A DNA stretch of 64,000 bases from Escherichia phage KEP4, in sequence record PP047754; one strand, written 5' to 3'. The notes below the pieces were generated by a model. The model ran no database searches, was not told the DNA's origin, and saw only the letters and a list, made by a program, of their open reading frames with translations. Each line of letters begins with the position of its first letter. Positions within the stretch are counted from its first letter, which is position 1. This document shows positions 4,837 through 33,091 of this stretch, one piece after another. The translations under genes were made by a program, and so were the position numbers.

Positions 4837-6420
4837 TTACTTGTATAGACCGTCAACATCAATAGATTTATGTTGGCGGTTGTATTCCGTAGTATAGTCA
4901 TCCAACACGAGATATTCACAGCAGCGGATTTTACTAGAACCGTAATCATCAGTGATAGACACGATGTCTTTCGGGTTCAGCTTACAACGCACAACCCGCT
5001 GGCCCAGGCTACCGAAACATTGTTTCAGATACGCCAGAGAACAAACGTGAAGACCATAGGAGCACAGGTCTTTGTTGTTATCGTTCACAAATGAGCGAGC
5101 CATCCGAACAATGGTCCCAGGAGCATTACTAACTTTTCCTGTGCGCTTGTCCATATAATTTCCGCGAACGGATTTGTATAGAATAATGTCGCCATCTTCA
5201 TGAATCTCAATGTCTGAGTATGCCATGAATTCATAGATTCGACCGGACTGAACCAGCGCGGCGCTCGGGTTTTGGAACATTTTGTCCAGGAAACGACCCA
5301 AGCGTTCCAAGTTCGGATAATCGCCTTTTAATGCCAAAGCCAAAATGCGTTTGGCAACGGAAGTTCCGGTGATATCATAGCCACCCCAGCGAACACGATT
5401 GTCTGAAAGGTCAACCATGCCTGTGGTGAATTGTTTGATGGCTTCACGCGGTTTCATCAGAGTGTACGCTGTTTTGACGTCACGATTTTTAATCGCTTCA
5501 ACAATACGGTCATACGCCTGGTGGCTCGTTGTGATCGTTTCCGGTTTACCATCAACCACGATTACGATACTTTCCGGCAAAATCATGATCTGGTGTTCGT
5601 TCAGGAACACAGACAGATCTTTTTCATTAAATGAATTCTGAGTTTGCTTGTCGCCTGTTTCTCCAACAACTGCAACAGTCTTGACCACGAATAATACGGA
5701 TGACAATGCCAGACGAAGTGTACGGCCTAAAATTACATCAAAGTAACCCACGCGCCGACGGGCATCAAGGGAACCGCGCATCGGGTATGTTTCGCCGTCA
5801 TGTTGTACACTGATTACCACGCCATCATTGACTTTGGTAACGCCATCAACCAGTGCTGTCGCCAATTCGGCCAACGGCGAAATATTTTCTTCATTGAAGC
5901 GGCTTGATCGAGTTTCTAACGGTTTCAGTTCTTCGCTTCTGAAAAGTTTGGCCTGAATAGCAGCAGAGCTATCGTAACGCATACAGATAAACACTGTTTG
6001 GTTTTCCAGGAAACGGCCAACATACCATTCTTCGCCTTCAGAATCGACAGACACCGAACCTTCCAGAACTTCATAGGTGTCGGGGATTTTCCCTTCTTCA
6101 GTCAATTCTTTAATTGGCGAAATCACGACCACGTTATTAGATTCTTTGATGATACGAACCATCAGGGCGCGGGCAATTGTTTTGGCACTGACGCCATAAA
6201 CTGATGCCAGAGAAGAATTGCTTTCACCTTTGCTGCTCTTGGTTTGTATTTCTTGAATCTGTTCAGTGGTCAGAGACTTAATCGAAGCTGGATCCACTCC
6301 CAGTTCTTTATCCGACACGCGTTGTATCATTGAGCGCGGTACGCCCAATTCACTGGCTATTGAACTTTGACTTCTGTTCTCATTCAACAGCTTGAGAATA
6401 CGTTTTTCTATAGCATTCAT
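4837..6420 (-). CDS. rIIB: rIIB-like protein
   Basis: 527-aa ORF directly downstream of rIIA. N-terminal helix-turn-helix-like segment and C-terminus (...CSYGLHVCSLAYLKQCFGSLGQRVVRCKLNPKDIVSITDDY...) match my recollection of T4 rIIB. Confidence 0.75.
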   Translation of the reverse strand: MNAIEKRILKLLNENRSQSSIASELGVPRSMIQRVSDKELGVDPASIKSLTTEQIQEIQTKSSKGESNSSLASVYGVSAKTIARALMVRIIKESNNVVVISPIKELTEEGKIPDTYEVLEGSVSVDSEGEEWYVGRFLENQTVFICMRYDSSAAIQAKLFRSEELKPLETRSSRFNEENISPLAELATALVDGVTKVNDGVVISVQHDGETYPMRGSLDARRRVGYFDVILGRTLRLALSSVLFVVKTVAVVGETGDKQTQNSFNEKDLSVFLNEHQIMILPESIVIVVDGKPETITTSHQAYDRIVEAIKNRDVKTAYTLMKPREAIKQFTTGMVDLSDNRVRWGGYDITGTSVAKRILALALKGDYPNLERLGRFLDKMFQNPSAALVQSGRIYEFMAYSDIEIHEDGDIILYKSVRGNYMDKRTGKVSNAPGTIVRMARSFVNDNNKDLCSYGLHVCSLAYLKQCFGSLGQRVVRCKLNPKDIVSITDDYGSSKIRCCEYLVLDDYTTEYNRQHKSIDVDGLYK

Positions 6421-6452
6421 CTTGTAGTTCTCACTGTGGGGTAATGGGGCTA

Positions 6453-9194
6453 TTATGCCCCGAGAATACGTTTTGAAATAGCCTTCACAAATCTAGTGGC
6501 ATCTTCAATCGCGTTGTGTGCCGAAGGCTGATATGTTGACATCATGAATTTCACCAAACGATGACATTCAACTCGGTATCGGTTTTTGGCCTTTTGCTTT
6601 TGAGATATAGTGCTAGTGACCTTTATCTCATCAAATCCTTCAGCAGTTAATTTTTCATTCAATAAATCAACAACTTGAGTTAACTGGTTACAGGCGCGGA
6701 AAAATCTCGTAGTTGAGAAAGGCATTTCTATATGATAATGTAATTCCTCAACAGCCTTGCGGAAATAACCGTACCCCGATCCAGACGGATTTCGTTTGGC
6801 CAGCATACGAACAATCTTCCATTCTTCTTCAGTGATTTGTTGTTTCGCATAACTGATGATTGCTTTTGCCCTGTGTTGATGATGGGCATAGCCATCCGTA
6901 ACTTTTCCATGGGAATCAATCAACAGCTTGGCACCATAATCAATGCGATGAGACATGATGTTTATGCCCTTGCGAAGTTTCAGGAGTTTCTTAGATTCAA
7001 GCGCCTGAAATTCATCTTTATAATGCTCAAGCAACATATCAAACACTGCGTCAATGGGGATGAATACTTCTGGGAATTTCTTCATCATCGGAACAGATTT
7101 ACGACGCGCAAGAACGATTGTTGGATGTGCTCCCAGCAAATCAAACAGGTTTTCGTTTCCATTCTCGCCGAACTTCGTTCTTTCCATCGCTTCACGCAAA
7201 TGTCCAGCCGCGGATTGTCGTAAGGTAATACCATGAATTTTATGGATACCTTCTCGGCCAGATACTTCGATATATACGATCTTTTTGCCCGAATCAATAA
7301 TATCTGAAACGGTTTTTCCATCTAATTCATAAACGCTGTCGAAGTTAAATGAATTGTAATGGAAACTAAACATCCCAGGATCTTTTTCAACGGTCGGGCG
7401 AACATATTCCATTTCATGCATGAAATAGACTTCATCCGGATTGAATAAATCGCCAAAAACCTCGATCAGTTTATCGGCAAAGACCAGGTAGTCCGGCGTT
7501 GTTTCTTGTACACCGATCCATGATTCAAAATAAGACTTCAATTCCTCATGGTTGGTAAATGATTCTTTATGTGCCGCCAGCTGATTCCGATTACTGAAAT
7601 AATTTTCATTCGGTTTGACGACGATAACGACATTGAAGTTATTGCGTGCTGTTTGTATCTTCAGGTTTCGAGCACGATTCGAGTTATCAATAATAACAGC
7701 AATTTTTGATTTAGATTTCAACCAATTTCCGACAGAGTTCACATAAATGCTGTCGTGTACTACACCGTTGTCGTGTACTTCAATTTCGTAAGGACTACCA
7801 ATAGACCGGAAAGGTGCATCCAAAGAGTAATCGCGCACGACGTCCGGCGCTCCGATATAACGGAACGTGCCTTTGTAGAAACGGTTATCTGCAGGAAATT
7901 CTCGCTCCACTAATTTACGGAAACCACTACCGAACATATCAGTCAGCTGAGTCTTTTTCATATACAACATAAGAGGACCCATTGACTCCGCTTGGCGAAG
8001 TTCATACATCTTCGCTTGCATGATATTTTCGGCCACATGCTTGAACACGCGGTTCAGGCTTTCACGAGTGAATTCGTCGTATGACAAGTCTTCGCGTGAA
8101 GGCGGTACATTCAGTTCCCCAAGTTCGAAGAAGGTATAGGAACTCGGGAATTTTTCCAGCACGGTGCATATTTCAGAGTCCAATTGGTCGAGATCTATCG
8201 GGTAAGAAACCCCGCCCATGACAGCATAGTGGATGTTGTCGGAATCTGACTTCGGTTGGATATATGTGTTGCCTACACGGTTTTCGAAGTTGATGTCAGA
8301 CCAACGGAAAGCATAACTGGCGTTTTCAACCTTCGGACGCATTGAAGGTCGCATCACTCGACCCAAACGGACCAACTCTTGTTCAAAGGCGGTAAAACGC
8401 TGATTCTTTACAGGAACTTTAACAGTCAGGCCGTTGAACTCATCAGTGTCCTCCGGTTTAGGATCACGGGTATCTAAATCCTTGGTAATGAGATCCACAG
8501 TTGGGATTCTGTCCGCATTCAGATACATCAGGAAGCGATACAGTTTCCCTTCATAGCGACTTTCTACTGTAAATGAATCAGATACCGCAAATGGGGATTT
8601 AGAACCTAGCCCAAACGCCCCTATTTGCCCGTCGTCGTCCTCTTTTGTACTATGGAAGAGTGTTGTATACAAACCAGGACCACGAATGATCTCGCCATCC
8701 TCAGCGCGGAATACCAGTACCCCATTATAATAACCAGGTGTACCAATAACAGCAGTGCTATCAGGGATTTCGTCTTCCTTCACGACGATATTACCTTCAA
8801 CCAGCACTTCATCTTCACGCGCTGTAATAGGCTCGCCGATGATCATTTCTAATGGAAGACCAACCCCATAATCTTTAATTTCCAGCCAGGGTTCCATAAC
8901 ATCCGGTAAATGTACAACAACAGGAGTTCCCTTGGGGGCAAGATGTTTGCTGTATCGTTGAGGCATAGGAGTGAGAGGAGCATAATGCGATGGCATCCAG
9001 CGTTGTTGGCGATCACGCATATTATGTGAGTCTATACCATTACACAACGTCTCACGCAAAGACGCCGCCTCTTTATATTTGTAGAGACTTGAAAATAATG
9101 TTTCAAATAATTTATCCGTCATCTTGACATTGAATGTCTGTCCGACGATGGTAGAAGAAGAGCGCACGAAATGCTCGGACTTGCGCATTTTCAT
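6453..9194 (-). CDS. rIIA: rIIA-like protein (GHKL/HATPase-type N-terminal domain)
   Basis: 913-aa ORF; N-box-like LRETLCNGIDSH, G1-like DYGVGLP, G2-like GAFGLGSKSPFAV as in T4 rIIA; conserved rIIA-rIIB adjacency. Confidence 0.8.
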   Translation of the reverse strand: MKMRKSEHFVRSSSTIVGQTFNVKMTDKLFETLFSSLYKYKEAASLRETLCNGIDSHNMRDRQQRWMPSHYAPLTPMPQRYSKHLAPKGTPVVVHLPDVMEPWLEIKDYGVGLPLEMIIGEPITAREDEVLVEGNIVVKEDEIPDSTAVIGTPGYYNGVLVFRAEDGEIIRGPGLYTTLFHSTKEDDDGQIGAFGLGSKSPFAVSDSFTVESRYEGKLYRFLMYLNADRIPTVDLITKDLDTRDPKPEDTDEFNGLTVKVPVKNQRFTAFEQELVRLGRVMRPSMRPKVENASYAFRWSDINFENRVGNTYIQPKSDSDNIHYAVMGGVSYPIDLDQLDSEICTVLEKFPSSYTFFELGELNVPPSREDLSYDEFTRESLNRVFKHVAENIMQAKMYELRQAESMGPLMLYMKKTQLTDMFGSGFRKLVEREFPADNRFYKGTFRYIGAPDVVRDYSLDAPFRSIGSPYEIEVHDNGVVHDSIYVNSVGNWLKSKSKIAVIIDNSNRARNLKIQTARNNFNVVIVVKPNENYFSNRNQLAAHKESFTNHEELKSYFESWIGVQETTPDYLVFADKLIEVFGDLFNPDEVYFMHEMEYVRPTVEKDPGMFSFHYNSFNFDSVYELDGKTVSDIIDSGKKIVYIEVSGREGIHKIHGITLRQSAAGHLREAMERTKFGENGNENLFDLLGAHPTIVLARRKSVPMMKKFPEVFIPIDAVFDMLLEHYKDEFQALESKKLLKLRKGINIMSHRIDYGAKLLIDSHGKVTDGYAHHQHRAKAIISYAKQQITEEEWKIVRMLAKRNPSGSGYGYFRKAVEELHYHIEMPFSTTRFFRACNQLTQVVDLLNEKLTAEGFDEIKVTSTISQKQKAKNRYRVECHRLVKFMMSTYQPSAHNAIEDATRFVKAISKRILGA

Positions 9195-9265
9195 AGTATA
9201 GAATTCCTGTTCAGATCAAAGAAGAACACATTATTGGGTAAGGTTATGATACTGGCGGGTGGTTC

Positions 9266-9291
9266 AATAGAAAAGCCTCCAATCGGAGGCT
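9266..9291 (-). terminator. rho-independent terminator (minus strand)
   Basis: Hairpin AGCCTCC-AATC-GGAGGCT followed on the minus strand by TTTTCTATT; directly after the stop of 9302..9655. Confidence 0.5.
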
Positions 9292-9301
9292 TTAATCAGG
9301 A

Positions 9302-9655
9302 TTAACTTCCCTGAACGTTTACAACGGTGGCGTTGAAATTGAATATCGGGTGGGTGGCACCTGGCTCTAACGTCTCTTCCAGATAACCCACAATATTGCG
9401 TGTCACAGATTTCGGCTCTGCGCGGGAAGGCTTCGTTGCGCCGAGGTCAATAATGCTCGAAGTGACTTGTTCAACCTGAGTGTGATTGACAACAAAATGA
9501 TAACGACTACCGAAGGCCGCAACTTCAACTTCTGTTATTTCTAAACCACTCAATTCAGAGCTGTTCAACTGCTTCACATTCAATTGAGAGCGGAGGTGCT
9601 CTACAATATTGCTGTAAACATATTGTGGTGTGATCAGCTGTTCAATAGAACTCAT
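9302..9655 (-). CDS. hypothetical protein
   Basis: 117-aa ORF. Confidence 0.5.
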   Translation of the reverse strand: MSSIEQLITPQYVYSNIVEHLRSQLNVKQLNSSELSGLEITEVEVAAFGSRYHFVVNHTQVEQVTSSIIDLGATKPSRAEPKSVTRNIVGYLEETLEPGATHPIFNFNATVVNVQGS

Positions 9656-9664
9656 GACATATCC

Positions 9665-9958
9665 TCATTTCTTTGGGGGTTTATTGTTACTTAAACGGAT
9701 CACCTCTGCTCGAAGGAAGAGGATTTCATCGGCCATCATTTTACCTTCTTGAAACATAACATGACATCGTGATGATCTGGGTTCACCTTCCGATAATGCG
9801 TGAAGGCGATATTCGGGGATGACATCATTTACGGCGTTTCTTTTTGTTCTTTCCATGGGTCTTGGCCTTTTTAGGACGACTGACGGAAGGACGAGCATGC
9901 CCAGGTTCCCCAGGGGTACACCCTTGTGCATAACGATGATCATCCCAGAGACGACCAT
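9665..9958 (-). CDS. hypothetical protein (conflicts with 9825..10031)
   Basis: 97-aa ORF with no recognisable RBS; overlaps the signal-peptide ORF in another frame, so only one of the two is likely real. Confidence 0.3.
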   Translation of the reverse strand: MVVSGMIIVMHKGVPLGNLGMLVLPSVVLKRPRPMERTKRNAVNDVIPEYRLHALSEGEPRSSRCHVMFQEGKMMADEILFLRAEVIRLSNNKPPKK

Positions 9959-10031
9959 TATGCGTCATATCTTCAGCCATGGCGGACAAAGCAAGGGTTG
10001 CTACAGCCGCAGCAGATAATGGTTTAGACAT
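9825..10031 (-). CDS. small secreted or membrane-targeted basic protein (predicted signal peptide)
   Basis: Start moved to the internal Met (MSKPLSAAAVATLALSAMA-ED...) preceded by AAGGAG at 7-nt spacing; Lys/Arg-rich C-terminus. Confidence 0.4.
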   Translation of the reverse strand: MSKPLSAAAVATLALSAMAEDMTHNGRLWDDHRYAQGCTPGEPGHARPSVSRPKKAKTHGKNKKKRRK

Positions 10032-10470
10032 TTGTTTCTCCTTTTGCTGCATACGACAGAGCTTTTACGATCATAACAGCCAAACCGATAGGATCGTATG
10101 CATTGTCGAATTCTTGTTCTATGTTCTGACGAATTTCATCAGAAGATTGTACTTCAGAGCAGTTCTTACTCTGTCTGCGTTGCTCTTGCTCGACTAGATC
10201 TTTGAACAGAAGGTCTTTGAAAGAATACTCATCGAAGTTTTCAAGATACCGTTGGATGCTTGGTTGTTTTACATCCATCGTTTGACGCAAATTGCTAATA
10301 GTTGAACTTGCCTGTTCGCGGTGTTTGTTCATAACAGCAAAGTTAACGGGCTTGCCCCAAGCATTCATCACTGGATTAGAGCATACTTGGCCAAAGAGAT
10401 CTTGGAAGGCATCATCCATGTGGATCAACGCAGTGGCCAATTCCTCATAAGTCGGTTTTTGAGTAGTCAT
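10024..10470 (-). CDS. hypothetical protein
   Basis: 148-aa ORF; 4-nt overlap with upstream gene. Confidence 0.55.
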   Translation of the reverse strand: MTTQKPTYEELATALIHMDDAFQDLFGQVCSNPVMNAWGKPVNFAVMNKHREQASSTISNLRQTMDVKQPSIQRYLENFDEYSFKDLLFKDLVEQEQRRQSKNCSEVQSSDEIRQNIEQEFDNAYDPIGLAVMIVKALSYAAKGETNV

Positions 10471-10868
10471 TTTCGTTTACTCCGATTTTTATATTTCTTA
10501 GCCTGACGTTTATGTTGGGCGGCTCCATATAGGCGCGGCGGCTTTTGATAACGTTGTGACGCAATTATGTCTCTGTCATCGGCTTCTGCTTCACAATACG
10601 AAATATCTGCCTTCCGTAACTGAGCCACCGCTTGAGATACCAATGTTTTGCGTTCACTTTCTACCAGATCATCACAAATTATCATGCGTTCACCTGGTTC
10701 ACAACGACGTTTAGGAATATCGTCTACACTGATACATTCTACTTCAACACCTTTCAACTTTTCTTGAAGGATAATGGCCATAGTCCGAGCGCCGATTCCT
10801 CCTCCAATAATCGCTATCTTTCTTGGCTTGTCTGTCATGTTCTTGTCCATGAAAAGGGGATAGAGCAA
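10467..10868 (-). CDS. hypothetical protein with N-terminal dinucleotide-binding-like GxGxxG motif
   Basis: 133-aa ORF; KIAIIGGGIGARTMAII resembles a Rossmann beta-alpha-beta start. Confidence 0.5.
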   Translation of the reverse strand: MLYPLFMDKNMTDKPRKIAIIGGGIGARTMAIILQEKLKGVEVECISVDDIPKRRCEPGERMIICDDLVESERKTLVSQAVAQLRKADISYCEAEADDRDIIASQRYQKPPRLYGAAQHKRQAKKYKNRSKRK

Positions 10869-10895
10869 TAATACCCTATCCCCATTTATTGAAGA
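10858..10895 (-). terminator. conserved intergenic hairpin element (terminator-like), copy 1
   Basis: GGGGATAGAG ... CCCTATCCCC stem with AATAATA-type loop; on the minus strand it is flanked by TTCTTCAATAAA upstream and a T-run downstream. Near-identical architecture at 13845..13890. Confidence 0.45.
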
Positions 10896-10899
10896 ATTA

Positions 10900-11322
10900 T
10901 TAGTCTTCCGAACCTACAACCCCACCACGCAGATCCTGTGCTGGCTTACCATCAGGTGCCATGACATAGATGGTATTGATGGTCTCAAACCAAGACAATA
11001 AATCAACTCCTTCAGTGTATGGCGTTACCGGAACAGAAGTTTTGATTTCTTTCTGTTCATCCTTCAAATCCGGATGACTTCCCGATAGGGTTAACCAAGC
11101 GAATCTTCCGTTGGGATAAATAATGCCTTCTTTGAACATTACAATCTTTTTGCGAGGATTATTGGCTTCGCCCAGACACACCACCAAATGATGTATCATT
11201 TCGGGGCGCGTCAACAACGTGTCATCTTTGATAATGCCCTGCTTGACAGCAGAGATTACCACTTCATCCAGTAACGCCTGTTGCTGTTCCAGCGTCAGAG
11301 ATTCGGTTAGTTTCACGCTCAT
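10900..11322 (-). CDS. hypothetical protein
   Basis: ORF-track frame 10900..11391 trimmed to the internal Met (MSVKLTES...) at 11322 to avoid a 65-nt overlap with the upstream gene. Confidence 0.5.
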   Translation of the reverse strand: MSVKLTESLTLEQQQALLDEVVISAVKQGIIKDDTLLTRPEMIHHLVVCLGEANNPRKKIVMFKEGIIYPNGRFAWLTLSGSHPDLKDEQKEIKTSVPVTPYTEGVDLLSWFETINTIYVMAPDGKPAQDLRGGVVGSED

Positions 11323-11326
11323 AAGA

Positions 11327-11896
11327 TCAGCCTTTGAAGTTAATCGGAGTCTGGACACCAGAGTCAAATGCGGCCTGGGTACGGGTGTCACTCACCACCT
11401 GACATGTCTTGTCAAGATCGATACGCGGATATCCAAAGATTCCTGCTATCAGAGAACCAGGGAACTGGCCAAGTTTAGTTTCATAGATCGCACATGCGTC
11501 CAATTTTTTAGTTTGGCTAATGCGGAATTCATCCCGACCTGAGCTGATAACAACCTGAATCTCTTTGTACAAAGATGAATCAAACTGAATATTCTGTTCC
11601 TGAATCCATTGCATTACTGCTTTGGAACCGTCTGCACCATAACGGCCTTGGAAAGTATCTTTGATCACTTCCTTCAAACCGTTTTTGTACATGTCAGGAA
11701 TCTGCGCCGTCTCCTGAACTTTGAGCGTGTAGTTGCTCAGGTGGTTTTCAGAATCTTTGTTGAACTTTTTGACCTGTTGTTCAATGCGGTTGAAATCATT
11801 GAAATAGCTAACCACACTGCCAATCCCAATTACAGCAAATGCTAGAATTGCCAACCCAACGATCCAACCAATTGAAATACCTTTACGTTGTGACAT
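11327..11896 (-). CDS. membrane-anchored protein, LemA-like (tentative)
   Basis: 189-aa ORF with one N-terminal transmembrane helix (ISIGWIVGLAILAFAVIGIGSVV) then a soluble domain; size and topology fit the LemA family. Confidence 0.45.
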   Translation of the reverse strand: MSQRKGISIGWIVGLAILAFAVIGIGSVVSYFNDFNRIEQQVKKFNKDSENHLSNYTLKVQETAQIPDMYKNGLKEVIKDTFQGRYGADGSKAVMQWIQEQNIQFDSSLYKEIQVVISSGRDEFRISQTKKLDACAIYETKLGQFPGSLIAGIFGYPRIDLDKTCQVVSDTRTQAAFDSGVQTPINFKG

Positions 11897-11911
11897 CTTT
11901 ACTTCCTCTTG

Positions 11912-13021
11912 TTAAAACAAACGTTTGTAAGTGCGACCATTGTACTGCATGCGGCCTAATATGAAAACTGCGGTAAATGGGATACATCCAAACAACACGA
12001 CGATAATCACTTCCCAAGTTTTAAGATCTCGCCATTTCAGATATTCCATTTCCTTCATCTCGACTCGGTTGTATCCCTTACTGATATTGACCGCAACTTC
12101 TTGGAACACGGATATGCCCATTGGTTTCCCAGTCAATGAAAGTCCGTTACGAGAATGGAGTTCCATGTTGTTCATGCCGTCGGCAAATGACGTAGACTTA
12201 CCCCAATTAATTTTCATATCCTTTGAAATATCGGTGACTACAATAACATCGTTCTTTTTACCGCCAGACCATGCATATAGAAGTCCCTGAAAATATTCAA
12301 CAGGCTGGCCAGAAGTCACAACCCAAACGATATTAACCTGACGTGAAGCACCTAATGTTTTCAGAGTATTGTTCAGATAATCATTCCAGTAATCAACAGG
12401 AATGTCCATCCCTGACATATTCAGAACACGAGTTACTCGGTAATAATCATACACCCTCGGATATGAAGGGATATGCTCTTTGAACTTCTCGGCGAATTGC
12501 TGGTCAGATTTAGAGAATAATGAATCTTTGTTGCCCAGCACATAATTCATATATGAATGTTCACGTGCCGCAGGTTCCCCGATTTTAACTTGTGCCCAAC
12601 GCGGAGGCTCTGTAGTACCCTGACGATCAATACGGTCAATGCTCAGATCACCGACGGTTGTTAATACGTCCCAATCAACGTCATAAGAGTGCTCATAGCA
12701 TGTGCTGCAATGACGCGTTTGTGTACAAGATCGGTTATTTCCTGAACCAGAGCAAGATGTTGTGTAATAACACATACATTCATAAGAATGTTCACAACCC
12801 ACCTTATTCCGTTGCTTATCAGTTACATATCCATTCAGGATTTCCACGTCCCCAGAACTACCAAGGGAGAAAGCAGCATATAATCCCGACTGGATAAGGC
12901 AAGACAATACGATAACAATGGCCGTGGCGATCAAAGTCTCCTTTGGCTCATGGGTCTTGCGGTGATATATTATAAACAAGATGGCCAAAATTACAGGAAC
13001 CACAAACAGAAGGTAAATCAT
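11912..13021 (-). CDS. membrane protein with Cys-rich extracytoplasmic region
   Basis: 369-aa ORF; N-terminal and C-terminal hydrophobic helices bracket a domain with many cysteines (GCEHSYECMCYYTTSCSGSGNNRSCTQTRHCSTCYEH). Confidence 0.55.
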   Translation of the reverse strand: MIYLLFVVPVILAILFIIYHRKTHEPKETLIATAIVIVLSCLIQSGLYAAFSLGSSGDVEILNGYVTDKQRNKVGCEHSYECMCYYTTSCSGSGNNRSCTQTRHCSTCYEHSYDVDWDVLTTVGDLSIDRIDRQGTTEPPRWAQVKIGEPAAREHSYMNYVLGNKDSLFSKSDQQFAEKFKEHIPSYPRVYDYYRVTRVLNMSGMDIPVDYWNDYLNNTLKTLGASRQVNIVWVVTSGQPVEYFQGLLYAWSGGKKNDVIVVTDISKDMKINWGKSTSFADGMNNMELHSRNGLSLTGKPMGISVFQEVAVNISKGYNRVEMKEMEYLKWRDLKTWEVIIVVLFGCIPFTAVFILGRMQYNGRTYKRLF

Positions 13022-13404
13022 AACACACCATCCACGAGTTGTTCCTTCGTCATACCAAGAAGTTGATTTTTATGCTCAGATTTAGCCCCATTTTTCAACA
13101 ACAGATCCCAACGTTCTTCATGATACTGTGGAGTCATTGCATCGTCAAAAGAAACATGGTGGCGATGCATAATTGTTGCAACGGTATGAAGAACGATTGC
13201 TGTTTCTCTTTTTAAAGCACGTGTATCCGTGATGTGGTCTTCGTATTCGATTCCCATCAAATCGAGTTCTTTTCGGATATATGCTATAGACAAATCACCT
13301 TCAGAATGCAATTTAACAATAGTCGCTTTCTTAGGATGTAACACGCCGTCTGTTTCTTTCATGAACAGATCGTACAAATATTGTTTGTATTCGGGGCGCT
13401 TCAT
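13018..13404 (-). CDS. hypothetical protein
   Basis: 128-aa ORF, 4-nt overlaps on both sides. Confidence 0.5.
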   Translation of the reverse strand: MKRPEYKQYLYDLFMKETDGVLHPKKATIVKLHSEGDLSIAYIRKELDLMGIEYEDHITDTRALKRETAIVLHTVATIMHRHHVSFDDAMTPQYHEERWDLLLKNGAKSEHKNQLLGMTKEQLVDGVL

Positions 13405-13622
13405 CTCGTAATCCCTCCGGCACAGATGATATTCAGTTCACCGCGACGGAAACCGCCTTGCCCACCGTTCAATTTAGTCGGAAGCGTATCTTGAACTTTT
13501 TGTGCGAACTCTTCCGACACTACCAGATGACCCTTTTCTTGTTTCGGGGTAGATTCAAAATAGTCGCCAAATGTCGCTTCCATATCGAGCACAGACATGT
13601 CTTCAATTCGTTGCATTGCCAT
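13401..13622 (-). CDS. hypothetical small protein
   Basis: 73-aa ORF in operon-style packing. Confidence 0.4.
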   Translation of the reverse strand: MAMQRIEDMSVLDMEATFGDYFESTPKQEKGHLVVSEEFAQKVQDTLPTKLNGGQGGFRRGELNIICAGGITR

Positions 13623-13633
13623 GATATAGGACC

Positions 13634-13825
13634 TCAGTATAATTTCGTATAAACTTGTTTAACGCCAATATCGGCAGGAGCTGTGCTCTGCTGCATATTA
13701 TAGAATGCCAAATCTGCTTGTTCTTTGTTTTCAAAATCAACTACAACTGTGTGTACTGATATTGCTTCACCCTGTCCATAAGCATAACAACGGCTGGTGA
13801 CCAATATTTTGTATTGAGGTGTCAT
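13634..13825 (-). CDS. hypothetical small protein
   Basis: 63-aa ORF. Confidence 0.35.
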   Translation of the reverse strand: MTPQYKILVTSRCYAYGQGEAISVHTVVVDFENKEQADLAFYNMQQSTAPADIGVKQVYTKLY

Positions 13826-13844
13826 AAATCAATCCTTGCAAAAA

Positions 13845-13890
13845 GAAAGGGGAACGGGCTAATAATAACCCATTCCCCTTTATTGAAGAA
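13845..13890 (-). terminator. conserved intergenic hairpin element (terminator-like), copy 2
   Basis: AGGGGAACGGG ... CCCATTCCCCT stem with TAATAATAA loop and the same TTTATTGAAGAA flank as the 10858 copy. Confidence 0.45.
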
Positions 13891-13906
13891 CGCAATCGCA
13901 ATCAGA

Positions 13907-14074
13907 TTACTTTTTCTTCAGCTCGTCCAGTTTGGCTTCGATTTGTTCCAGGATGTCTTTACCCTTCTGAACAATCACTTCACCGTCTTGCGCGTGTTTA
14001 CGAAAGACCAGAGCGCCAGCTACGAAGCCGACAACAACGCCAGGAAGCGCGTACACCAACAGATCTTGTAACAT
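13907..14074 (-). CDS. small membrane protein (55 aa)
   Basis: Hand-found ORF below the 60-aa track cutoff: MLQDLLVYALPGVVVGFVAGALVFRKHAQDGEVIVQKGKDILEQIEAKLDELKKK, one transmembrane helix plus a charged tail. Confidence 0.4.
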   Translation of the reverse strand: MLQDLLVYALPGVVVGFVAGALVFRKHAQDGEVIVQKGKDILEQIEAKLDELKKK

Positions 14075-14110
14075 GATAATATCCTCACTTTATAGGTGAG
14101 GATATTTATA

Positions 14111-15346
14111 TCAGCGCTTCAACAAAGACATGAGGTTTACACTGGTCGACTTCGGATTGTCCTCTATCTTTCGGACGGGCATTTTCAGATTAGTGTAAAC
14201 CTCAGATGGTTCCCAACGCGTACCCTGCTGTAAATGCCATATATGTAGAGGAACACCCGTCTCAAAGAACACAGGCATCTTCCACTTCTGGACGCCAGGA
14301 ACGTGCCCTGCAGGAGCTTTTTCGCACAACAGGGTATCTGGTAGCCAGAGTGAACGGGCTTCCCATAATGCCTTACAGGAGTATTCAGGCCAAATACGTT
14401 CCATATAATCGATCTCGTCCCATGTACGCTCGGCGTCCCACCCGATGTAACGGGTATTCTTCAGTCGGAAGAATTTCTTCAGCCAACAAGCACCGGAGGT
14501 CTCAAAGTTCAGACGATTGATAAACGTGATGTGGCCAAACTCTTCAACGCATTCCTGAAACGCTTTCTCAAGGTCGGTTTCGAGTATATCACATTCTTCG
14601 TCTGTAATAGGACAACCGTTGATCTTTTTCTTCCCGTGCTTGGTCACCCAGTCGTCACGGTTTGACAAGAATGCCGCGCCGTTGCGGTTGGACTCGCTGC
14701 CATCGCGGTCACGCAGCATGAACCCAGGGACGTCGATCTCCCACATGTTGCCGAATACCATGTTCAGGGCTTCCAGGAAGTTCCAGGCGCTCAGGCGGCC
14801 AAAGTATTTCCAGGACATCGCCGTGTCCCACAGATTCGTGAATTGGTGGACAGGGATATCCAATTCAAGCATCGGTCGGAATGCTTCCATCTGAGTACGC
14901 CCAGCCAGCCAATCAATGTAGGACTGAACACACGGGATCATCTTCGACTTACGGTAACGGCAATCGGTATCGAAGCGCATACGCTCAAAGTTCAGGTTGT
15001 ACCAATCAGAAAAGCGCTGCATCTCTTCTTTGGACTGAGGAGGCACAGGGAACTCACTGTAGATTGTCCATGGACCGATGGCGTTATAACAGCAGCCCCA
15101 AAGGAACGACATCCAGATCTTGCGCTCGATCTTCTCAAGCTGTGTGATGCCTTCAGTGACTTCGATCGCATAGTCCATCAGACGCATCTGCTGGTTGTGC
15201 TCTTCGGTGTAGGACAGCGCCTCCACCCAAGCCTTGAGCAGGTACATCCGATTCTCAGGCTTGCGATAGTCAACAGCCAGGTCAATCGGGTACTTCCATT
15301 CAGCCGGGGGCGCATAGCCAGTCGGCATTTTAGAAATGTTATTCAT
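14111..15346 (-). CDS. conserved protein of unknown function; candidate DNA-base modification enzyme (tentative)
   Basis: 411-aa Trp/Cys-rich ORF clustered with a P-loop kinase, a HAD hydrolase and the DNA polymerase. No motif-level assignment was possible by eye. Confidence 0.6.
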   Translation of the reverse strand: MNNISKMPTGYAPPAEWKYPIDLAVDYRKPENRMYLLKAWVEALSYTEEHNQQMRLMDYAIEVTEGITQLEKIERKIWMSFLWGCCYNAIGPWTIYSEFPVPPQSKEEMQRFSDWYNLNFERMRFDTDCRYRKSKMIPCVQSYIDWLAGRTQMEAFRPMLELDIPVHQFTNLWDTAMSWKYFGRLSAWNFLEALNMVFGNMWEIDVPGFMLRDRDGSESNRNGAAFLSNRDDWVTKHGKKKINGCPITDEECDILETDLEKAFQECVEEFGHITFINRLNFETSGACWLKKFFRLKNTRYIGWDAERTWDEIDYMERIWPEYSCKALWEARSLWLPDTLLCEKAPAGHVPGVQKWKMPVFFETGVPLHIWHLQQGTRWEPSEVYTNLKMPVRKIEDNPKSTSVNLMSLLKR

Positions 15347-15528
15347 CCGATTTTACTCCCGAGTTCAACACGGAACGCCAGATAGAAGAAAGTGGCGATA
15401 GATACAGGACATATCACCAAGAATGGGCGCTGTTGCACCCCTTCTGTGACCATGACGCCGACCAGCGAAACCGTAAAGATAACGAACATCAACATCATGA
15501 AGATAAAATCAACCTGCTTGATTTTCAT
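15343..15528 (-). CDS. small membrane protein
   Basis: 61-aa ORF, two hydrophobic segments. Confidence 0.4.
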   Translation of the reverse strand: MKIKQVDFIFMMLMFVIFTVSLVGVMVTEGVQQRPFLVICPVSIATFFYLAFRVELGSKIG

Positions 15529-15895
15529 CTTTCACTTCCTCTACAGGAGAAACAACTTCAGGCTCAGCTTCGGGAGCCAGCTGAATTTCTTCGGGGCTTA
15601 CTACGGGCTGTCCCAGAGACCAGATAGGCAGGAAACGACGATCATTCGTCACCAACCAAATTTGCTTGGCGGTTTTCGTCTTTTCGGAAATAAAATGCTG
15701 GGCATTGACTTGGGTACGAGCCAAACCCACCTGACGCCAAGAACCGAAATCCTTAGAAGAAGGATTGGTATTCAGTTGAAATTGTGGGACGATTTTATTC
15801 TGTTCCGGATAGTAACGGACAGCGTTAATCATCTTCGCATCACCACGGTAATCAATAGCAACAGCGACAACGTTGCGTGGAATGAGGATTTTCAT
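15509..15895 (-). CDS. hypothetical protein
   Basis: 128-aa ORF with acidic Pro/Glu-rich C-terminus. Confidence 0.5.
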   Translation of the reverse strand: MKILIPRNVVAVAIDYRGDAKMINAVRYYPEQNKIVPQFQLNTNPSSKDFGSWRQVGLARTQVNAQHFISEKTKTAKQIWLVTNDRRFLPIWSLGQPVVSPEEIQLAPEAEPEVVSPVEEVKDENQAG

Positions 15896-15896
15896 T

Positions 15897-16100
15897 TTAA
15901 TTCCTTTTGAAACTCTGAATTATGTTATAGACGAAAGGCGTTAATAAGATAGCACCCCCCAAATAATATAACGCGTAAACGTTCAATATTTCGGTTGAAT
16001 CCAACTCAACGATGCCCAAATATTTCATGACACCGACGAGCACAGCTGTGATACACATCACCAATCCGACGAACACAAAATATTTAGACATCTGTTTCAT
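15897..16100 (-). CDS. small membrane protein
   Basis: 67-aa ORF with two predicted transmembrane helices. Confidence 0.4.
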   Translation of the reverse strand: MKQMSKYFVFVGLVMCITAVLVGVMKYLGIVELDSTEILNVYALYYLGGAILLTPFVYNIIQSFKRN

Positions 16101-16102
16101 TT

Positions 16103-17008
16103 CTAACCCTTACTCAACAGGCCGAGAAGGGATACAGAGGACTTTGTTACCTCTCCCTTGGCGCTCGCCTTGGTTTTAGATTTGGTCACCTTCTCAGGGA
16201 CTCGATGCGCTAGAGGATCATCCCCACCGACTTCGCGCGTCATTGGGTCAGTTTCACAGAATCCGTAGAAATCTTTGATGTCCAGACCCATGGCGTGAAA
16301 CTCACCACGCATTTGATGATGAATAGCGTTGCCAATCACCCACAAAGGTGCATCAAACGGCATCATGGCTAATTCGCTATCATTTCCTGTTTTGAATTCT
16401 TGAGTGTTTGTAGGCGATTGACGATACAACACGTCTTGCCCGCTGTAGTCATTGACCACCACTTCCCAACCCAGCACCAGCATTTCAGTCTTCGACTTCT
16501 CAAACTCCTTGGAGTAAGATTCGTTGCGTGACCAGCCGGAGTCCCCTGCTTCCTTACCAGAGCGACCACGGATGCGCGCATCATACTGATAGCGGTCTGG
16601 GTATGCAAAATAAAGCAACGCCAGAGATTCAATCGGATAGTTCTTGAACATCCATTCAGGACGCCATTTATCTGACAGCATGAGGGGTTCACCCTCGCAC
16701 ACCAAAGTGTAACCCTGAGCCAGCCAGCCTTTGACCAGATCACGGGCGATATCACCCGAGCCTGTGGCGGCGTGGATGGCGTCCATGGAAGTCCAGGAAG
16801 CCAGACCGGATTTGTTGGACACAGTATACTGGCCGACGAAGATTAACTTCAGCTCTTCGAATTTCAGGCCGAATGGGCGCGTCTTGTCACCAATGGTGTA
16901 GGTGAGTTCAGTAGGCTCCAGCTTAGTGCGGAGCCATTCGATGAACTGGACTACTCTCGTACCCTTGCCCACGCCACTTGTTCCTTTCACTACAATTATT
17001 TTAGCCAT
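16103..17008 (-). CDS. P-loop kinase (NMP-kinase-like Walker A)
   Basis: 301-aa ORF; N-terminal IIVVKGTSGVGKGT matches the GxxGxGKGT P-loop of nucleotide/nucleoside kinases. Confidence 0.65.
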   Translation of the reverse strand: MAKIIVVKGTSGVGKGTRVVQFIEWLRTKLEPTELTYTIGDKTRPFGLKFEELKLIFVGQYTVSNKSGLASWTSMDAIHAATGSGDIARDLVKGWLAQGYTLVCEGEPLMLSDKWRPEWMFKNYPIESLALLYFAYPDRYQYDARIRGRSGKEAGDSGWSRNESYSKEFEKSKTEMLVLGWEVVVNDYSGQDVLYRQSPTNTQEFKTGNDSELAMMPFDAPLWVIGNAIHHQMRGEFHAMGLDIKDFYGFCETDPMTREVGGDDPLAHRVPEKVTKSKTKASAKGEVTKSSVSLLGLLSKG

Positions 17009-17349
17009 TATGCATCTTCCTCAATACGCCAGCTCACACCGCCCAACCAGGGAGACCAGAAAACAGCAACCTGTGGGCGATCGTTTTCTACAAACTTCAC
17101 TTTATACTGGTCGTCGAAGTTATAGAAAATTTCATCGTCATCTGGTGCCATACCGTTTTCTATCAGAACACGCTTTAACTCCAGCGCCGCACCAACGGAA
17201 GTGGGTGTGGTTTGTTTACGAATGAAGTTGTTCACATGGATAATAACGCCATCCATATCGCTATCACCGGAACGCTTGTCTGGGGTTTCCCCAAACTTGG
17301 ATTGTTCTTGCACGATGTCCTCCTCAATGGACGTATTGATAATGGCCAA
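17008..17349 (-). CDS. hypothetical protein
   Basis: 113-aa acidic ORF. Confidence 0.45.
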   Translation of the reverse strand: MAIINTSIEEDIVQEQSKFGETPDKRSGDSDMDGVIIHVNNFIRKQTTPTSVGAALELKRVLIENGMAPDDDEIFYNFDDQYKVKFVENDRPQVAVFWSPWLGGVSWRIEEDA

Positions 17350-18106
17350 TCAGGCGGTTCACCACTTCGACAATATTGCGGTTCAGGAAGTCGAAGTGGT
17401 TCTGGCCTTCGACTGGTTTAATATAAAGCATATCTTCCGAGTTCGAAAGATCCAGTTTTTCATAATTTCCCTGGGGAACAAAGATGACAAAAATATTGTT
17501 CATCGCACAGGGTTCAACGTATTTCGGGTTATCATCAATTAAAACATCACCTGCCAAAAGATGCTTTTCGTCGGTGCTGACAAACCCGTTGAAGATGCCA
17601 GGGAACTTGTCATAGACAAACTGGCGCTTGCTGCGCTCGTGTTCTGGCTCACACTTAGATACTGCGATCAATTCAACATTTTCAAAGTCTTCGAGAAGGA
17701 TCTTCTTCAGATTCACCAGGAACTCGTAAGCGCCTGGAAGCGGGTTCATCTTGGCATACAGGTCCGGCATGCGCCACCAATCCATAGGATCACGTCCTGT
17801 AGGTGAATCCATCCATTGACCAGCAACAAACACACGGCGCGTCAACCATGCTGGGTGAGCGCGTTCCCGCATGAGGATCGCCAAATCACCAGCATGAGCC
17901 ATATAGCACTCTTTGGTGATACGCTGGAAATCATTGGGATAATCATGACAACCCATGTTTTCAGCAGCAGCTTTTGAATTGGAAATATTAAACCAATCCA
18001 CCCAAGGGGAGAGGCTATCAACCAAAGTCAAGTCTACGTCTACCAGGATACGATACATTCCACCGATTTTAGAATTGGCATCATACAGACCAACATGATT
18101 ATTCAT
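17324..18106 (-). CDS. HAD-superfamily hydrolase (possible nucleotidase/phosphatase)
   Basis: ORF-track frame 17324..18166; start placed at the internal Met (18106) with GGAG upstream. Motif I hhhDxDxT present (ILVDVDLTLVD). Confidence 0.55.
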   Translation of the reverse strand: MNNHVGLYDANSKIGGMYRILVDVDLTLVDSLSPWVDWFNISNSKAAAENMGCHDYPNDFQRITKECYMAHAGDLAILMRERAHPAWLTRRVFVAGQWMDSPTGRDPMDWWRMPDLYAKMNPLPGAYEFLVNLKKILLEDFENVELIAVSKCEPEHERSKRQFVYDKFPGIFNGFVSTDEKHLLAGDVLIDDNPKYVEPCAMNNIFVIFVPQGNYEKLDLSNSEDMLYIKPVEGQNHFDFLNRNIVEVVNRLIGHYQYVH

Positions 18107-18443
18107 CAGACTTCTCCACTTGATCATAACCAGTTGCGGTGCATTGCTCTTCTGTGCAATCTGCATACAGAACCACAGAAGATTCCTTCACGTAAGTGGT
18201 ACAGTGATAGGTTTCATCTTCCTGGATGGAATCGTCATAATTGCAAACAGTTTGCAACGGACCAGGAGTGGTGTTATCCAACGCAGCATGTGCCTTGATT
18301 GTGTCTTCCATCTTATTCACCGCTTGCTGATTGGTGAACGTCGGCGCATCGAGGTCAACAGTAGACGCAACGTCCAGAAGGGTAGAGCATGCAGTGGTAG
18401 AGAAAGCCAGAGCACACACCAGAAGAATCTTATTGAGTTTCAT
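18099..18443 (-). CDS. predicted lipoprotein
   Basis: Start placed at MKLNKILLVCALAFSTTAC: signal peptide with lipobox-like STTAC, mature protein Cys-rich and acidic. Confidence 0.5.
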   Translation of the reverse strand: MKLNKILLVCALAFSTTACSTLLDVASTVDLDAPTFTNQQAVNKMEDTIKAHAALDNTTPGPLQTVCNYDDSIQEDETYHCTTYVKESSVVLYADCTEEQCTATGYDQVEKSDE

Positions 18444-18503
18444 AACAATACCTGTTGTCAAAGGGATAACAGGGGGAATTATATCCCCCTTTGGTTTATT
18501 GAA

Positions 18504-21500: not shown

Positions 21501-21579
21501 TGTTTGTCTCCGGTTAACCGTGCCGTTAGCACGTCCCCGTAATTTAGCCGAGGAACGTTCAATGACCAAGGAGTTTATT

Positions 21580-22152
21580 ATGGCAATCCCCTTTGTGAGT
21601 ATGATCCCAGGGGCGCTCAAGCAACTCTGGAACCTCGGGACTGATTTGATCCAATACAAGCGGGAAGTTGTTCAGGCCAAACACGATGTCAAGCTAGAGG
21701 CTATCAAGTCCTCCTCAGATTGGGAGCTGTCTAAGATCACCGAAGTCGGCGGGTCTTGGAAAGACGAATTCTGGACTATCGTGTTAGCTGTTCCCGCTAT
21801 CCTCGTCATGACTGCTCCGGTTGTGGAACTAATTCTGTTCCCTGATGAGTATCATAAAGGGGATTTCATCAAAGCAGTAATCGACGGCCTCCAGGCGCTC
21901 GATACCGCACCTGAATGGTATACCTATTCGTTATTGACAGCAATTAGTGCATCATTCGGTATCAAGGGGTATAACCATTACAAAAGCAACAGCCGGAAGG
22001 CGCAAGCTGTGGATGCTCTCAAGCAGTTTGGGGTCAAAGTGGTTAACAAAGATCCCACTGTTGTTACTCAGTCGGGTTCTCCCGATCTTGAGTCTGCTCC
22101 CCCAGCTGGGTCTACTGCGACCTCTGGTGCGTGGCCTGATCTGAAGAAATAA
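21580..22152 (+). CDS. hypothetical membrane protein
   Basis: ORF 21520..22152; start placed at the ATG (MAIPFVSMIP...) preceded by AAGGAG. Contains a hydrophobic helix (WTIVLAVPAILVMTAPVV). Confidence 0.5.
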   Translation: MAIPFVSMIPGALKQLWNLGTDLIQYKREVVQAKHDVKLEAIKSSSDWELSKITEVGGSWKDEFWTIVLAVPAILVMTAPVVELILFPDEYHKGDFIKAVIDGLQALDTAPEWYTYSLLTAISASFGIKGYNHYKSNSRKAQAVDALKQFGVKVVNKDPTVVTQSGSPDLESAPPAGSTATSGAWPDLKK

Positions 22153-22156
22153 GTTA

Positions 22157-22184
22157 GAGGGGAGGAAACTCCCCTTTCTTTTGG
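22157..22184 (+). terminator. rho-independent terminator
   Basis: GGGGAG-GAAA-CTCCCC hairpin followed by TTTCTTTTGG. Confidence 0.65.
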
Positions 22185-22193
22185 TGTTAAGGA

Positions 22194-23059: not shown

Positions 23060-23066
23060 TATGACA

Positions 23067-23257: not shown

Positions 23258-23268
23258 AGGACTATATC

Positions 23269-27156: not shown

Positions 27157-27227
27157 GTTGTTTCCTCAAATCAATGAAGGGGTTTATAAACGGTTAAATT
27201 TTAAACCCCTTATTCTCATTGAACAAA

Positions 27228-29206: not shown

Positions 29207-29619
29207 ATTTATTCTTACTTTCGTAAACATTCTTTATTTTGCATGAAGACCCAGGGCAGGATCATAACGATCGTAAGTTTTTGGATGAGACCCGTTCTTG
29301 ATGCTCACCATCCGACCTTCCCAACTAGCGCGAATTCTGTTGGAAATCACCACCCAAATATTCTTCATAATATAGAACCCTTCAACTATGTTTATTCGCT
29401 TCGATCGCCCTTAATTGGGCGTCCGCGTCAGCTTTGGTGTCATGTGTCCCAAGAACTTTAGTCTTGGTGTGGTCAAGGACAACCCACTTATCGCCTCGCT
29501 TTTCAACAAACTCAACAATCTCTTTGTTGTCAGTAGCGAGGCCATCCCACTCAGTAAGAAACTCACCGAACGTTTTCATCATACTCACCAATTGTTTATT
29601 GAACAACTGGTTTATTTAG

Positions 29620-32728: not shown

Positions 32729-33091
32729 TCCGGAGCCTCACCGAATTGATTAAATGTCTCCATTATTATATTGGAGATACGTTTATTGAATATAAACACA
32801 GGAATGGCCAATAAAATAATGACAGTGATTATTAATAGGTAAAAACTACTTTTCTACAACATCAAGAAACTGTATCTTAACGCGGTGCCCTTCGAGTTGT
32901 GAGTGTTAACGAACAACGAGAAGCAGCCTCCATGGCTGTGGAATGGGACTGCCTGTCAAGGCGGTGTTACGAGCGAGGGCGTCAGCCCCCTCGCGAGTAT
33001 ATTCGAATAAATTAAACGCGCGCGAGCGTTTTGATTCCCGTTGGCTAAATATCTTCAACACCATATTCAAACTCAGGTGATGGAGATTATC
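32729..33091. promoter_or_regulatory. divergent intergenic control region (early-type leftward, late-type rightward)
   Basis: 363-nt gap between divergent genes; TATAAT-like hexamer on the minus strand and the CTAAATATC late-promoter-like motif at 33045-33053. Confidence 0.35.

Follow-up and report, generated by a model that had tools for sequence, protein, structure and literature searches.

The Viunalikevirus motif was reportedly first described in Arch Virol in 2012. Written as TTCAAT[N14]TATAAT, it has been named as an Ackermannviridae regulatory motif in a source that gives motif positions only and is silent on a -10 box within a terminator loop (PMC7283392). Promoter-early stem-loop (PeSL) cassettes have been described in the T4-like phages RB49/phi1, T4/PST and KVP40/nt-1 (PMC2839356, PMC4122927); their stem-loops are of the polyG..polyC type with G-T pairs and lie mostly between -35 and -10 or overlap the -10 (PMC2839356), and their promoter activity, terminator activity and mini-circle recombination have been experimentally shown (PMC2839356, PMC4122927). 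ViI-like phages are reported to be without MotA and AsiA homologues (PMC3184105). Early promoters were sought and not found in the 2011 CBA120 paper, the words promoter and transcript do not occur in a 2024 review, and no Ackermannviridae transcript 5' or 3' ends, transcriptome or start sites were found in the literature searched.

The window, that is, the whole 64,000-nucleotide stretch of DNA analysed here, is assigned to a ViI-like Kuttervirus (Ackermannviridae), and the 5 kb tested are 100% identical to Salmonella phages GG32 and SFP10. Two hairpins placed by the initial annotation at 10858-10895 (E1) and 13845-13890 (E2) were both found there. Read on the minus (coding) strand, both elements have the order stop codon, TTCTTCAATAAA, G-rich arm, TATTAT loop, C-rich arm, T-run and ATG, with a Shine-Dalgarno sequence between T-run and ATG that is clear in E2 only. 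E1 runs TTCTTCAATAAA (10896-10885), T, GGGGATAGGG, TATTATTG, CTCTATCCCC (stem 10883-10856) and TTTT. Its upstream box (10885..10896, minus strand; TTCAAT core 10888-10893) starts 3 nt past the TAA (10900-10902) that ends the upstream gene, and its hairpin, GGGGATAGGG(TA) / (TG)CTCTATCCCC (10856..10883), comprises 12 pairs, G·U pairs included, followed on the 3' side by a T-run of four U only (10852-10855). The -10-like hexamer TATTAT (10868..10873), in loop and upper stem, follows TTCAAT at a distance of exactly 14 nt; a transcription start is predicted near A10861, 7 nt downstream of the hexamer, and the gene that follows likely starts at ATG 10838-10836. E2, on the same strand, runs TTCTTCAATAAA (13890-13879), GGGGAATGGG, TTATTATTA, GCCCGTTCCCC, TTTCTTTTT, its stem spanning 13881-13846 when the A/T extension is counted. 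The box (13879..13890; TTCAAT core 13882-13887) lies 16 nt past the stop (13907-13909) of a 55-aa upstream gene, and the hairpin, AAAGGGGAATGGGTTA / TAGCCCGTTCCCCTTT (13846..13881; core arms 13869-13878 and 13849-13858), has 16 pairs, one of them U·G. Its T-run TTTCTTTTT (13840-13848) holds 9 pyrimidines, 8 of them U, and its TATTAT hexamer (13862..13867), part of the hairpin loop, likewise follows TTCAAT at 14 nt, with a predicted start near G13855; downstream follow the Shine-Dalgarno sequence AAGGA (~13832-13836) and the ATG (13825-13823) of a 63-aa gene.

Our preferred reading, to which we assign a probability of roughly 0.7, is that E1 and E2 are Kuttervirus composite terminator-promoter cassettes that would work as PeSL elements do in T4-like phages: each would most likely end one transcript and start the next from a promoter with its -10 box in the hairpin loop. 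A promoter embedded in a terminator was the third option raised in the initial annotation, and it is favoured here by the fixed N14 spacing between flank and loop, by the intergenic recurrences and by the hairpin with its T-run. The hairpins fold well, with a minimum free energy of -23.1 kcal/mol (z -5.34) for E1 RNA and -28.5 kcal/mol (z -7.12) for E2 RNA, 0 of 200 shuffles folding as well in either case, and they are the best two terminator-like sites of window positions 5000-24000 (19 kb). The sense strand is 7-9 kcal/mol more stable than the antisense strand (-20.7 vs -13.6 kcal/mol for E1, -26.5 vs -17.9 kcal/mol for E2) because of the G·U pairs. At both elements a GC-rich RNA hairpin followed by a U-run stands on the coding strand 3' of a stop codon; hairpin and T-run together make a textbook intrinsic terminator by prediction, on the same strand as the motif. 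Changes in the E1 stem preserve pairing (96% of cells paired), converting G·U to G-C or G-C to A-U. Covariation is thin: 10 of 16 pairs are invariant and the observed score is reached in 11 of 500 shuffles. The strong stem and U-run, and the flanking A-tract and U-tract that lengthen the stem, would also suit plain intrinsic terminators and nothing else, with the TTCAATAAA flank being the A-tract side and the AT loop incidental. The E2-orthologous hairpin is entered as a terminator in the GenBank records of LIMEstone1 and Maynard, which fits the termination half of the preferred reading; that its annotators call it nothing more would suit the simpler account too. We nevertheless hold this simpler account to be doubtful in view of how the motif is distributed and conserved.

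The sequence TTCTTCAATAAA occurs exactly twice in the window versus 0.04 copies expected. The whole-sequence motif search proposed in the initial annotation placed TTCAATAAA far above chance, with 10 copies in the window versus 1.29 expected and no shuffle attaining 10. Three recurrences that had been listed at the outset are real and all on the minus strand (22411-22419, 32143-32151 and 32782-32790), but those at 22.4 kb and 32.15 kb are not clear members because neither has a -10 box at the canonical spacing of 14 nt; two further intergenic copies, 18495-18503 and 29595-29603, had been missed, and the copies at 6658 (plus), 54266 (plus) and 56346 (minus) are without TAnnnT at N14 spacing. 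Although the E2 stem is shifted by 1 nt relative to that of E1, TTCAAT and TATTAT are 14 nt apart in both, so that the spacing of the motif is held independently of the hairpin. The full pattern TTCAAT-N14-TAnnnT has 14 matches in GG32 versus 2.4 expected from shuffles, and the GG32 spacing histogram has a sharp peak at 14, with 7 TAT[AT]AT matches versus at most 2 at every other spacing. Nine of the 14 matches are intergenic, each co-oriented with the next gene, and two one-mismatch sites, also intergenic and pointing at the next gene, bring the candidate promoters to 11. In the window itself, all 11 matches to the pattern are on the minus strand, and the plus strand has 0. A hairpin touches all 11 candidate promoters, the two with one mismatch included; the -10 box lies in or beside the loop at seven (weakly at two of these), and at the other four (GG32 19133, 46053, 65715 and 92612) the hairpin is in another register or upstream of the box, as at 65715, where a GGGGTTC/GAACCCC hairpin abuts the box on its upstream side. 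The presence of the pattern at these four sites speaks against terminators alone.

Further sites lie on the minus strand of the window. E3 (18471..18503; TTCAAT 18498-18503), of the same class as E1 and E2, has its -10 box TATAAT (18478-18483) as the loop of a GGGGGA/TCCCCC hairpin; its TTCAAT abuts the stop of a long upstream ORF (18504-21659), its T-run is weak, and its GG32 counterpart lies immediately past the DNA polymerase stop at 30188. With only four U ahead of the start region at E1 and a poor U-run at E3, termination is perhaps partial, and the E1 terminator may be weaker than that of E2. A canonical site at 32757..32790 (TTCAAT 32785-32790, N14, TATAAT 32765-32770, with a weak TCTCCA/TGGAGA hairpin whose loop contains the TATAAT) lies in the divergent intergenic region from which the minus-strand gene block starts. 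A promoter must exist there, and the lack of any upstream gene to terminate at this site again counts against the terminator-only account. At 29578..29611 (TTCAAT 29598-29603, N14, TATGAT 29578-29583) the hairpin (29587-29611) encloses the TTCAAT box rather than the -10, and the GG32 counterpart lies just past tRNA-Met; at 27177..27223 (TTCAAT 27218-27223, N14, TAAAAT 27198-27203) a AAGGGGTTTA/TAAACCCCTT hairpin (27177-27211) overlaps the -10. The hairpin register varies among members.

Comparison with related phages, likewise proposed in the initial annotation, revealed E1, E2 and E3 at orthologous sites in nearly all of 20 loci from four genera, Kuttervirus, Agtrevirus, Limestonevirus and Taipeivirus. 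Neutral sites are near saturation, the neighbouring gene having a four-fold-site identity of no more than 0.50-0.77. We used this four-fold-site comparison in place of an argument that we rejected, namely that E2 is unusually conserved on the grounds that blastn matched the element alone in Klebsiella phages, which simply do not have the small genes on its flanks. The E2 hexamer of the different genera reads TATTAT, TAATAT or TATATT, keeping T1, A2 and T6 and varying at inner positions, which is the pattern that would be expected of a -10 box, and in Taipeivirus the 5' arm of E2 has lost one G and gained one C with N14 retained. Both the constancy of the hexamer ends and the survival of the N14 spacing through stem shifts and indels are at odds with terminators alone; in favour of that account, phage maane has the E2 stem-loop inverted and TAnnnT destroyed, a flip that is evidently tolerated. 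In Serratia phages related to 3M and MAM1, the syntenic 13 kb lack the TTCAAT-N14 motif. Of 12 genomes compared, 5 lose homology at the 3' edge of E2; in Taipeivirus, E2 persists as an island with a deletion on either side, and in one genome an ORF has been inserted directly next to E3. A junction between two elements was not seen in the compared genomes, nor was a deletion of the E2-E1 block (the PeSL-type excision product) in the 12 of 22 loci compared by blastn.

Stem sequences far more conserved than neutral sites, and a structure specific to the sense strand, could alternatively mean that the hairpin, together with its conserved loop and flank, is bound or cleaved by a specific RNA-binding protein or RNase in mRNA processing or stability, and is not a promoter. 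This we consider very unlikely. The stems of the seven sites with the -10 in or beside the loop differ in sequence, and what they have in common is the TTCAAT-N14-TAnnnT register at the DNA level, present also where the hairpin is elsewhere. No Rfam family was found above the gathering score for the hairpins in the 9-20 kb scanned (E<=1); the best hit, an sRNA match over E2 at 25.2 bits versus a gathering score of 40, was rejected as a chance terminator-like match. Nothing was found in support of the RNase recognition site entertained in the initial annotation.

As promoters, the preferred terminator-promoter cassettes would not be of the canonical sigma-70 type. The TTCAAT box spans roughly -32 to -27 and is not placed where a sigma-70 -35 would be; among the candidate promoters the mean best score for a sigma-70 -35 at 16-18 nt is 2.9 of 6 versus a background of 2.5, and no extended -10 TG was found. 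With neither a -35 match nor an extended -10, initiation by unaided host polymerase is uncertain. A generic sigma-70 scan did not flag E1 or E2, and its call of E3 depended solely on a fortuitous TTGATT spaced at 18 nt; TTCAAT taken as a shifted -35 at 16-18 nt spacing showed no enrichment over background. The TTCAATAAA box is possibly read by a sequence-specific protein. A more specific and tentative proposal, which we would not yet favour, is that this box, centred near -30 and with no -35, may be read by a phage-encoded or virion-delivered factor, an analogue of MotA/AsiA-like sigma appropriation in a family reported to have neither protein. If so, the sites would be the missing 'early/middle' promoters of ViI-like phages, and the near-invariant stems would either contribute to the surface that is recognised or serve gene cassettes as linkers for recombination.

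In the preferred mechanism, which we infer from sequence as regards termination, initiation and start sites, transcripts arriving from the upstream minus-strand gene would fold the G-rich/C-rich hairpin, with G·U pairs in the sense RNA alone, and would stop or be attenuated at the U-run. The same ~50 bp of DNA would act as a phage promoter, of a TTCAAT(AAA)-N14-TAnnnT type specific to the family. The 5' arm of the hairpin would form its spacer and the AT-only loop its -10 box, with discriminator and first transcribed bases supplied by the 3' arm. RNA started near 10861 or 13855 would hold the 3' arm only, could form no hairpin and would read into the next gene. One could also imagine the inverted repeat acting in DNA, a cruciform or hairpin exposing a single-stranded -10 as in the hairpin promoters of phage N4, and the AT-only loops with the hexamer in or beside them at 7 of 11 sites would fit. 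The arms are, however, imperfect, their mismatches being G·T on one strand and A·C on the other, which speaks for RNA structure rather than a DNA cruciform; the hairpin is located elsewhere at four sites, and no virion RNA polymerase is among the gene products listed for GG32. We regard a DNA cruciform as highly improbable.

The terminator-promoter fusion design has already been described in T4-like phages and no new mechanism is revealed here. If correct, the present reading would extend the PeSL design beyond these phages, with a hint that fusing terminator and promoter is perhaps a general solution in large lytic myoviruses. Transcription control is essentially unstudied in the Ackermannviridae, phages that are widely used in biocontrol and as reporter phages. 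TTCAAT-N14 promoters fused to terminators could provide a transcription-unit map for annotation, compact insulated expression cassettes for engineering Ackermannviridae phages, and precise, testable predictions of transcript ends.

Compared with the known systems, E1 and E2 are exact to the Ackermannviridae ('Viunalikevirus') motif in TTCAAT and spacing, the second hexamer being TATTAT (5 of 6); they are intergenic, co-oriented with the downstream gene and conserved at orthologous sites in related genera, and the late motif CTAAATAcCcc, reported alongside the TTCAAT motif, is present in the late half of the window. With intrinsic terminators they share the GC-rich stem, short loop, U-run, upstream A-tract and position right after a coding-strand stop codon; they differ in that loop and flank hold a second, conserved signal. 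T4 middle promoters (MotA box at -30 plus sigma-70 -10; in part PMC4122927) are similar in having a conserved box centred near -30, with a TAnnnT -10 some 12 nt away and no -35, but the box here is TTCAATAA versus the TGCTTtA of MotA, which does not match a MotA-dependent promoter. PeSLs differ in host family, being from T4-like phages and not Ackermannviridae, and in having a sigma-70 -35 at 17 nt where the present elements have TTCAAT(AAA) at 14-nt spacing; a near-consensus sigma-70 early promoter was not found at the candidate promoters. PeSLs and the present elements both combine promoter and stem-loop in one intergenic element of at most ~100 bp, reaching from stop codon to Shine-Dalgarno/ATG. 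Both have a polyG..polyC stem-loop with G-T pairs as terminator or attenuator (here predicted), placed between the promoter boxes or over the -10 and less often upstream, and of both there are several copies, set amid small genes of unknown function. Gene indels abut PeSLs; the homology breaks at E2 and the inserted ORF at E3 may reflect a similar association here.

Two hairpins described in the initial annotation are both present, as minus-strand elements at about 10856–10896 (E1) and 13846–13890 (E2). Read 5′ to 3′ on that strand, E1 runs TAA-TAA-TTCTTCAATAAA-T-GGGGATAGGG-TATTATTG-CTCTATCCCC-TTTT-C-ATG and E2 runs TAA-(16 nt)-TTCTTCAATAAA-GGGGAATGGG-TTATTATTA-GCCCGTTCCCC-TTTCTTTTT-GCAAGGATTGATTT-ATG. 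By blastn the two match each other over 47–73 nt at 75–85% identity, and of 216 phage records most contain two sites matched by a 70-nt E2 probe. A motif search of the window returned the 12-mer TTCTTCAATAAA in E1 and E2 only (0.04 expected) and 10 copies of the 9-mer TTCAATAAA (1.29 expected); these, like the spaced promoter motif discussed below, exceed expectation, and the observation stands, well beyond what chance would give. The 5-kb stretch around both elements is 100% identical in Salmonella phages GG32 and SFP10 and Escherichia phage LPEK22 and matches 277 records, overwhelmingly ViI-like phages (Ackermannviridae), with Kuttervirus giving the best matches. Negative GC skew and ORFs agree on minus-strand genes throughout 1–32 kb, and since rIIA/B and the DNA polymerase lie here together with numerous small genes lacking an assigned function, calling this part the early region is reasonable. 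On the minus strand at 10781–10850, the gene following E1 probably starts at ATG 10838, which gives it a GxGxxG nucleotide-binding-type N-terminus (MTDKPRKIAIIGGGIGA...) that relatives share; in the GG32 annotation the start is placed at the equivalent of 10781, and this motif is lost.

Folded as RNA hairpins, E1 (−23.1 kcal/mol, z −5.3) and E2 (−28.5 kcal/mol, z −7.1) are the top two terminator-like sites in 19 kb. The G·U pairs in each stem become A·C mismatches on the opposite strand, and sense RNA is more stable than antisense by 7–9 kcal/mol (−20.7 vs −13.6 kcal/mol for E1, −26.5 vs −17.9 kcal/mol for E2); the fold belongs to the sense-strand RNA. Across 11 different E1 sequences taken from related phages, 96% of pair cells hold standard pairs, and cells without pairing are confined to the outer two positions of the A/U extension. 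One-sided changes in the core stem exchange G·U with G–C (or U·G with U–A), and one pair passes from G–C to A–U. Covariation statistics are weak (the observed score is reached by 11 of 500 shuffles) because 10 of the 16 pairs are invariant. Sense-strand hairpin, U-run and placement 3–16 nt after a stop codon make up the anatomy of a putative intrinsic terminator for the upstream gene, a reading matched by the "terminator" annotation of the E2 ortholog in the LIMEstone1 and Maynard records. The U-run is short in E1 and poor in E3, an element of the same class at 18471–18503 (minus strand) whose GG32 counterpart directly follows the DNA polymerase stop, and some of these elements may therefore be attenuators, not full terminators. 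Another strong terminator-like hairpin, AGAGGGGAGGAAACTCCCCTTT followed by CTTTTGG at 22156–22177 on the plus strand, lies directly after the ORF at 21520–22152 and has no TTCAAT box.

The conserved flank and loop of E1 and E2 form a second signal. From the TTCAAT box to the start of TATTAT the distance is exactly 14 nt in both, despite a one-base displacement of the stem between them. TTCAAT[N14]TATAAT has been named in the literature as a regulatory motif of Ackermannviridae (PMC7283392). Within the window all 11 instances of the generalized motif TTCAAT-N14-TAnnnT are on the minus strand, and a census of the whole assembled genome of GG32 gave 14 copies vs 2.4 in shuffles. With spacings of 8 to 23 compared, the histogram peaks at 14, where TAT[AT]AT is found seven times and at most twice at any other spacing. 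All nine intergenic matches in GG32 are oriented toward the next gene, as are the likewise intergenic one-mismatch sites at GG32 46053 and 117314. The copy at window 32790 occupies the intergenic region between divergent genes from which the minus-strand block starts, a place that requires a promoter. At most sites a purine (G in 7 of 11) stands 7 nt past the hexamer, so transcript starts are predicted near 10861 for E1 and 13855 for E2; RNA started there would carry the 3′ arm only and would thus escape its own terminator.

These 11 candidate promoters, the nine intergenic matches and the two one-mismatch sites, are all in contact with a hairpin. The −10 lies in or beside the loop at GG32 30189 (window 18503), 34805 (E2), 37799 (E1), 113244 and 117314, and more weakly at 15956 and 21511; at 19133, 46053, 65715 and 92612 it is the TTCAAT box that lies inside or next to the hairpin. 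This makes E1 and E2 the most fully developed members of a class found across the genome. From the readings offered initially, a promoter embedded in a terminator is the best supported, with the putative −10 of TTCAAT-N14-TAnnnT placed in the terminator loop, both activities being inferred from sequence.

Comparison with related phages, proposed in the initial annotation, drew on 22 Ackermannviridae loci collected via a conserved 411-aa neighboring gene, and places E1, E2 and E3 at orthologous positions in Kuttervirus, Agtrevirus, Limestonevirus and Taipeivirus with minor exceptions only. The motif is not universal in the family, since it is absent from the syntenic 13 kb of two Serratia phage loci, in which the 411-aa gene ortholog and its downstream neighbor overlap and no intergenic element separates them. 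Identity is about 80–93% (by eye) in the elements vs 50–77% at four-fold degenerate sites of the neighboring gene, so the elements are under purifying selection. TTCAATAA is invariant across the compared relatives; E2 hexamers (TATTAT, TAATAT, TATATT) vary at inner positions only, keeping T1, A2 and T6; and in Taipeivirus the 5′ arm has lost a G and gained a C, preserving N14, while the altered 3′ arm keeps its pairing. These features point to a promoter and not to a stem alone.

The 63-aa gene just downstream of E2 (13634–13825, minus strand) comes and goes among close relatives: in 5 of 12 comparisons homology stops exactly where E2 ends at its 3′ side, in CAAGGA. In three Taipeivirus loci the genes on both sides are missing, so that E2 stands isolated with a deletion on either side, and one of these (L024, 2736–3024) carries an extra small ORF between the upstream ORF and E3, its TAA stop abutting the TTCAAT box. 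A role in recombination is only suggestive, because no junction between two elements was seen in the compared genomes. In Salmonella phage maane (L013, 7467–7503, orthologous to window 13846–13881) the stem-loop of E2 lies in reverse orientation between its flanks, GGGGAACGGG-TTAATAATA-ACCCATTCCCC, with both arm mismatches and the loop flipped; only two maane records match this form at 100%. The inversion keeps the hairpin (−21.9 kcal/mol) and removes TAnnnT, TAATAA now following TTCAAT-N14, which shows that at least one genome can do without the predicted E2 promoter.

Two further recurrences of the core had been pointed out. Near 22.4 kb, in a context called palindromic, two boxes are indeed present, one per strand (TTATTGAA...TTCAATAA, 22411–22445), neither a canonical member: the box on the minus strand is not followed by TAnnnT at N14, and the plus-strand box TTCTTCAATAA falls between the hexamers of a promoter-like TTTACT-16-TATACT, upstream of a gene starting at 22503. 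Near 32140, a TTCAATAAA copy exists at 32143–32151 (minus strand), between a stop codon, which it directly follows, and a small membrane-like ORF without annotation (MFYMMLLLILLIG...); it lacks a hairpin and an N14 −10, the closest −10-like hexamer being TAAAGT at 12 nt. A second reported Ackermannviridae motif, CTAAATACCCC, thought to be a late promoter, has exact copies at 36907, 40135 and 42728 (plus strand, all three in the late-gene half of the window) and at 25185 (minus strand). The top sigma-70 consensus match in 19 kb, TTGCCA-16-TATAAT (11/12) at 13616–13643 on the plus strand, is antisense to the minus-strand genes, falls where two small genes meet, and could be chance or an antisense promoter.

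In architecture the E1/E2 class matches the promoter-early stem-loop (PeSL) cassettes of T4-like phages, intergenic units that fill the space between a stop codon and the next Shine-Dalgarno/ATG and whose polyG..polyC stem-loops include G-T pairs (PMC2839356); the gene-content changes at element edges are a possible further parallel. Each of the three components, promoter motif, terminator annotation and fused design, has been published before; as far as we found, they have not previously been combined for Ackermannviridae. Unlike PeSLs and ordinary sigma-70 promoters, the present class has neither a −35 match (mean best score 2.9/6 vs a background of 2.5) nor an extended −10. Its conserved box falls at about −32 to −24, a geometry reminiscent of the middle promoters that depend on MotA in T4. 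MotA and AsiA are reported to be missing from ViI-like phages, whose early promoters have been described as unidentified (PMC3184105). What reads the TTCAAT box is the most interesting point of the class.
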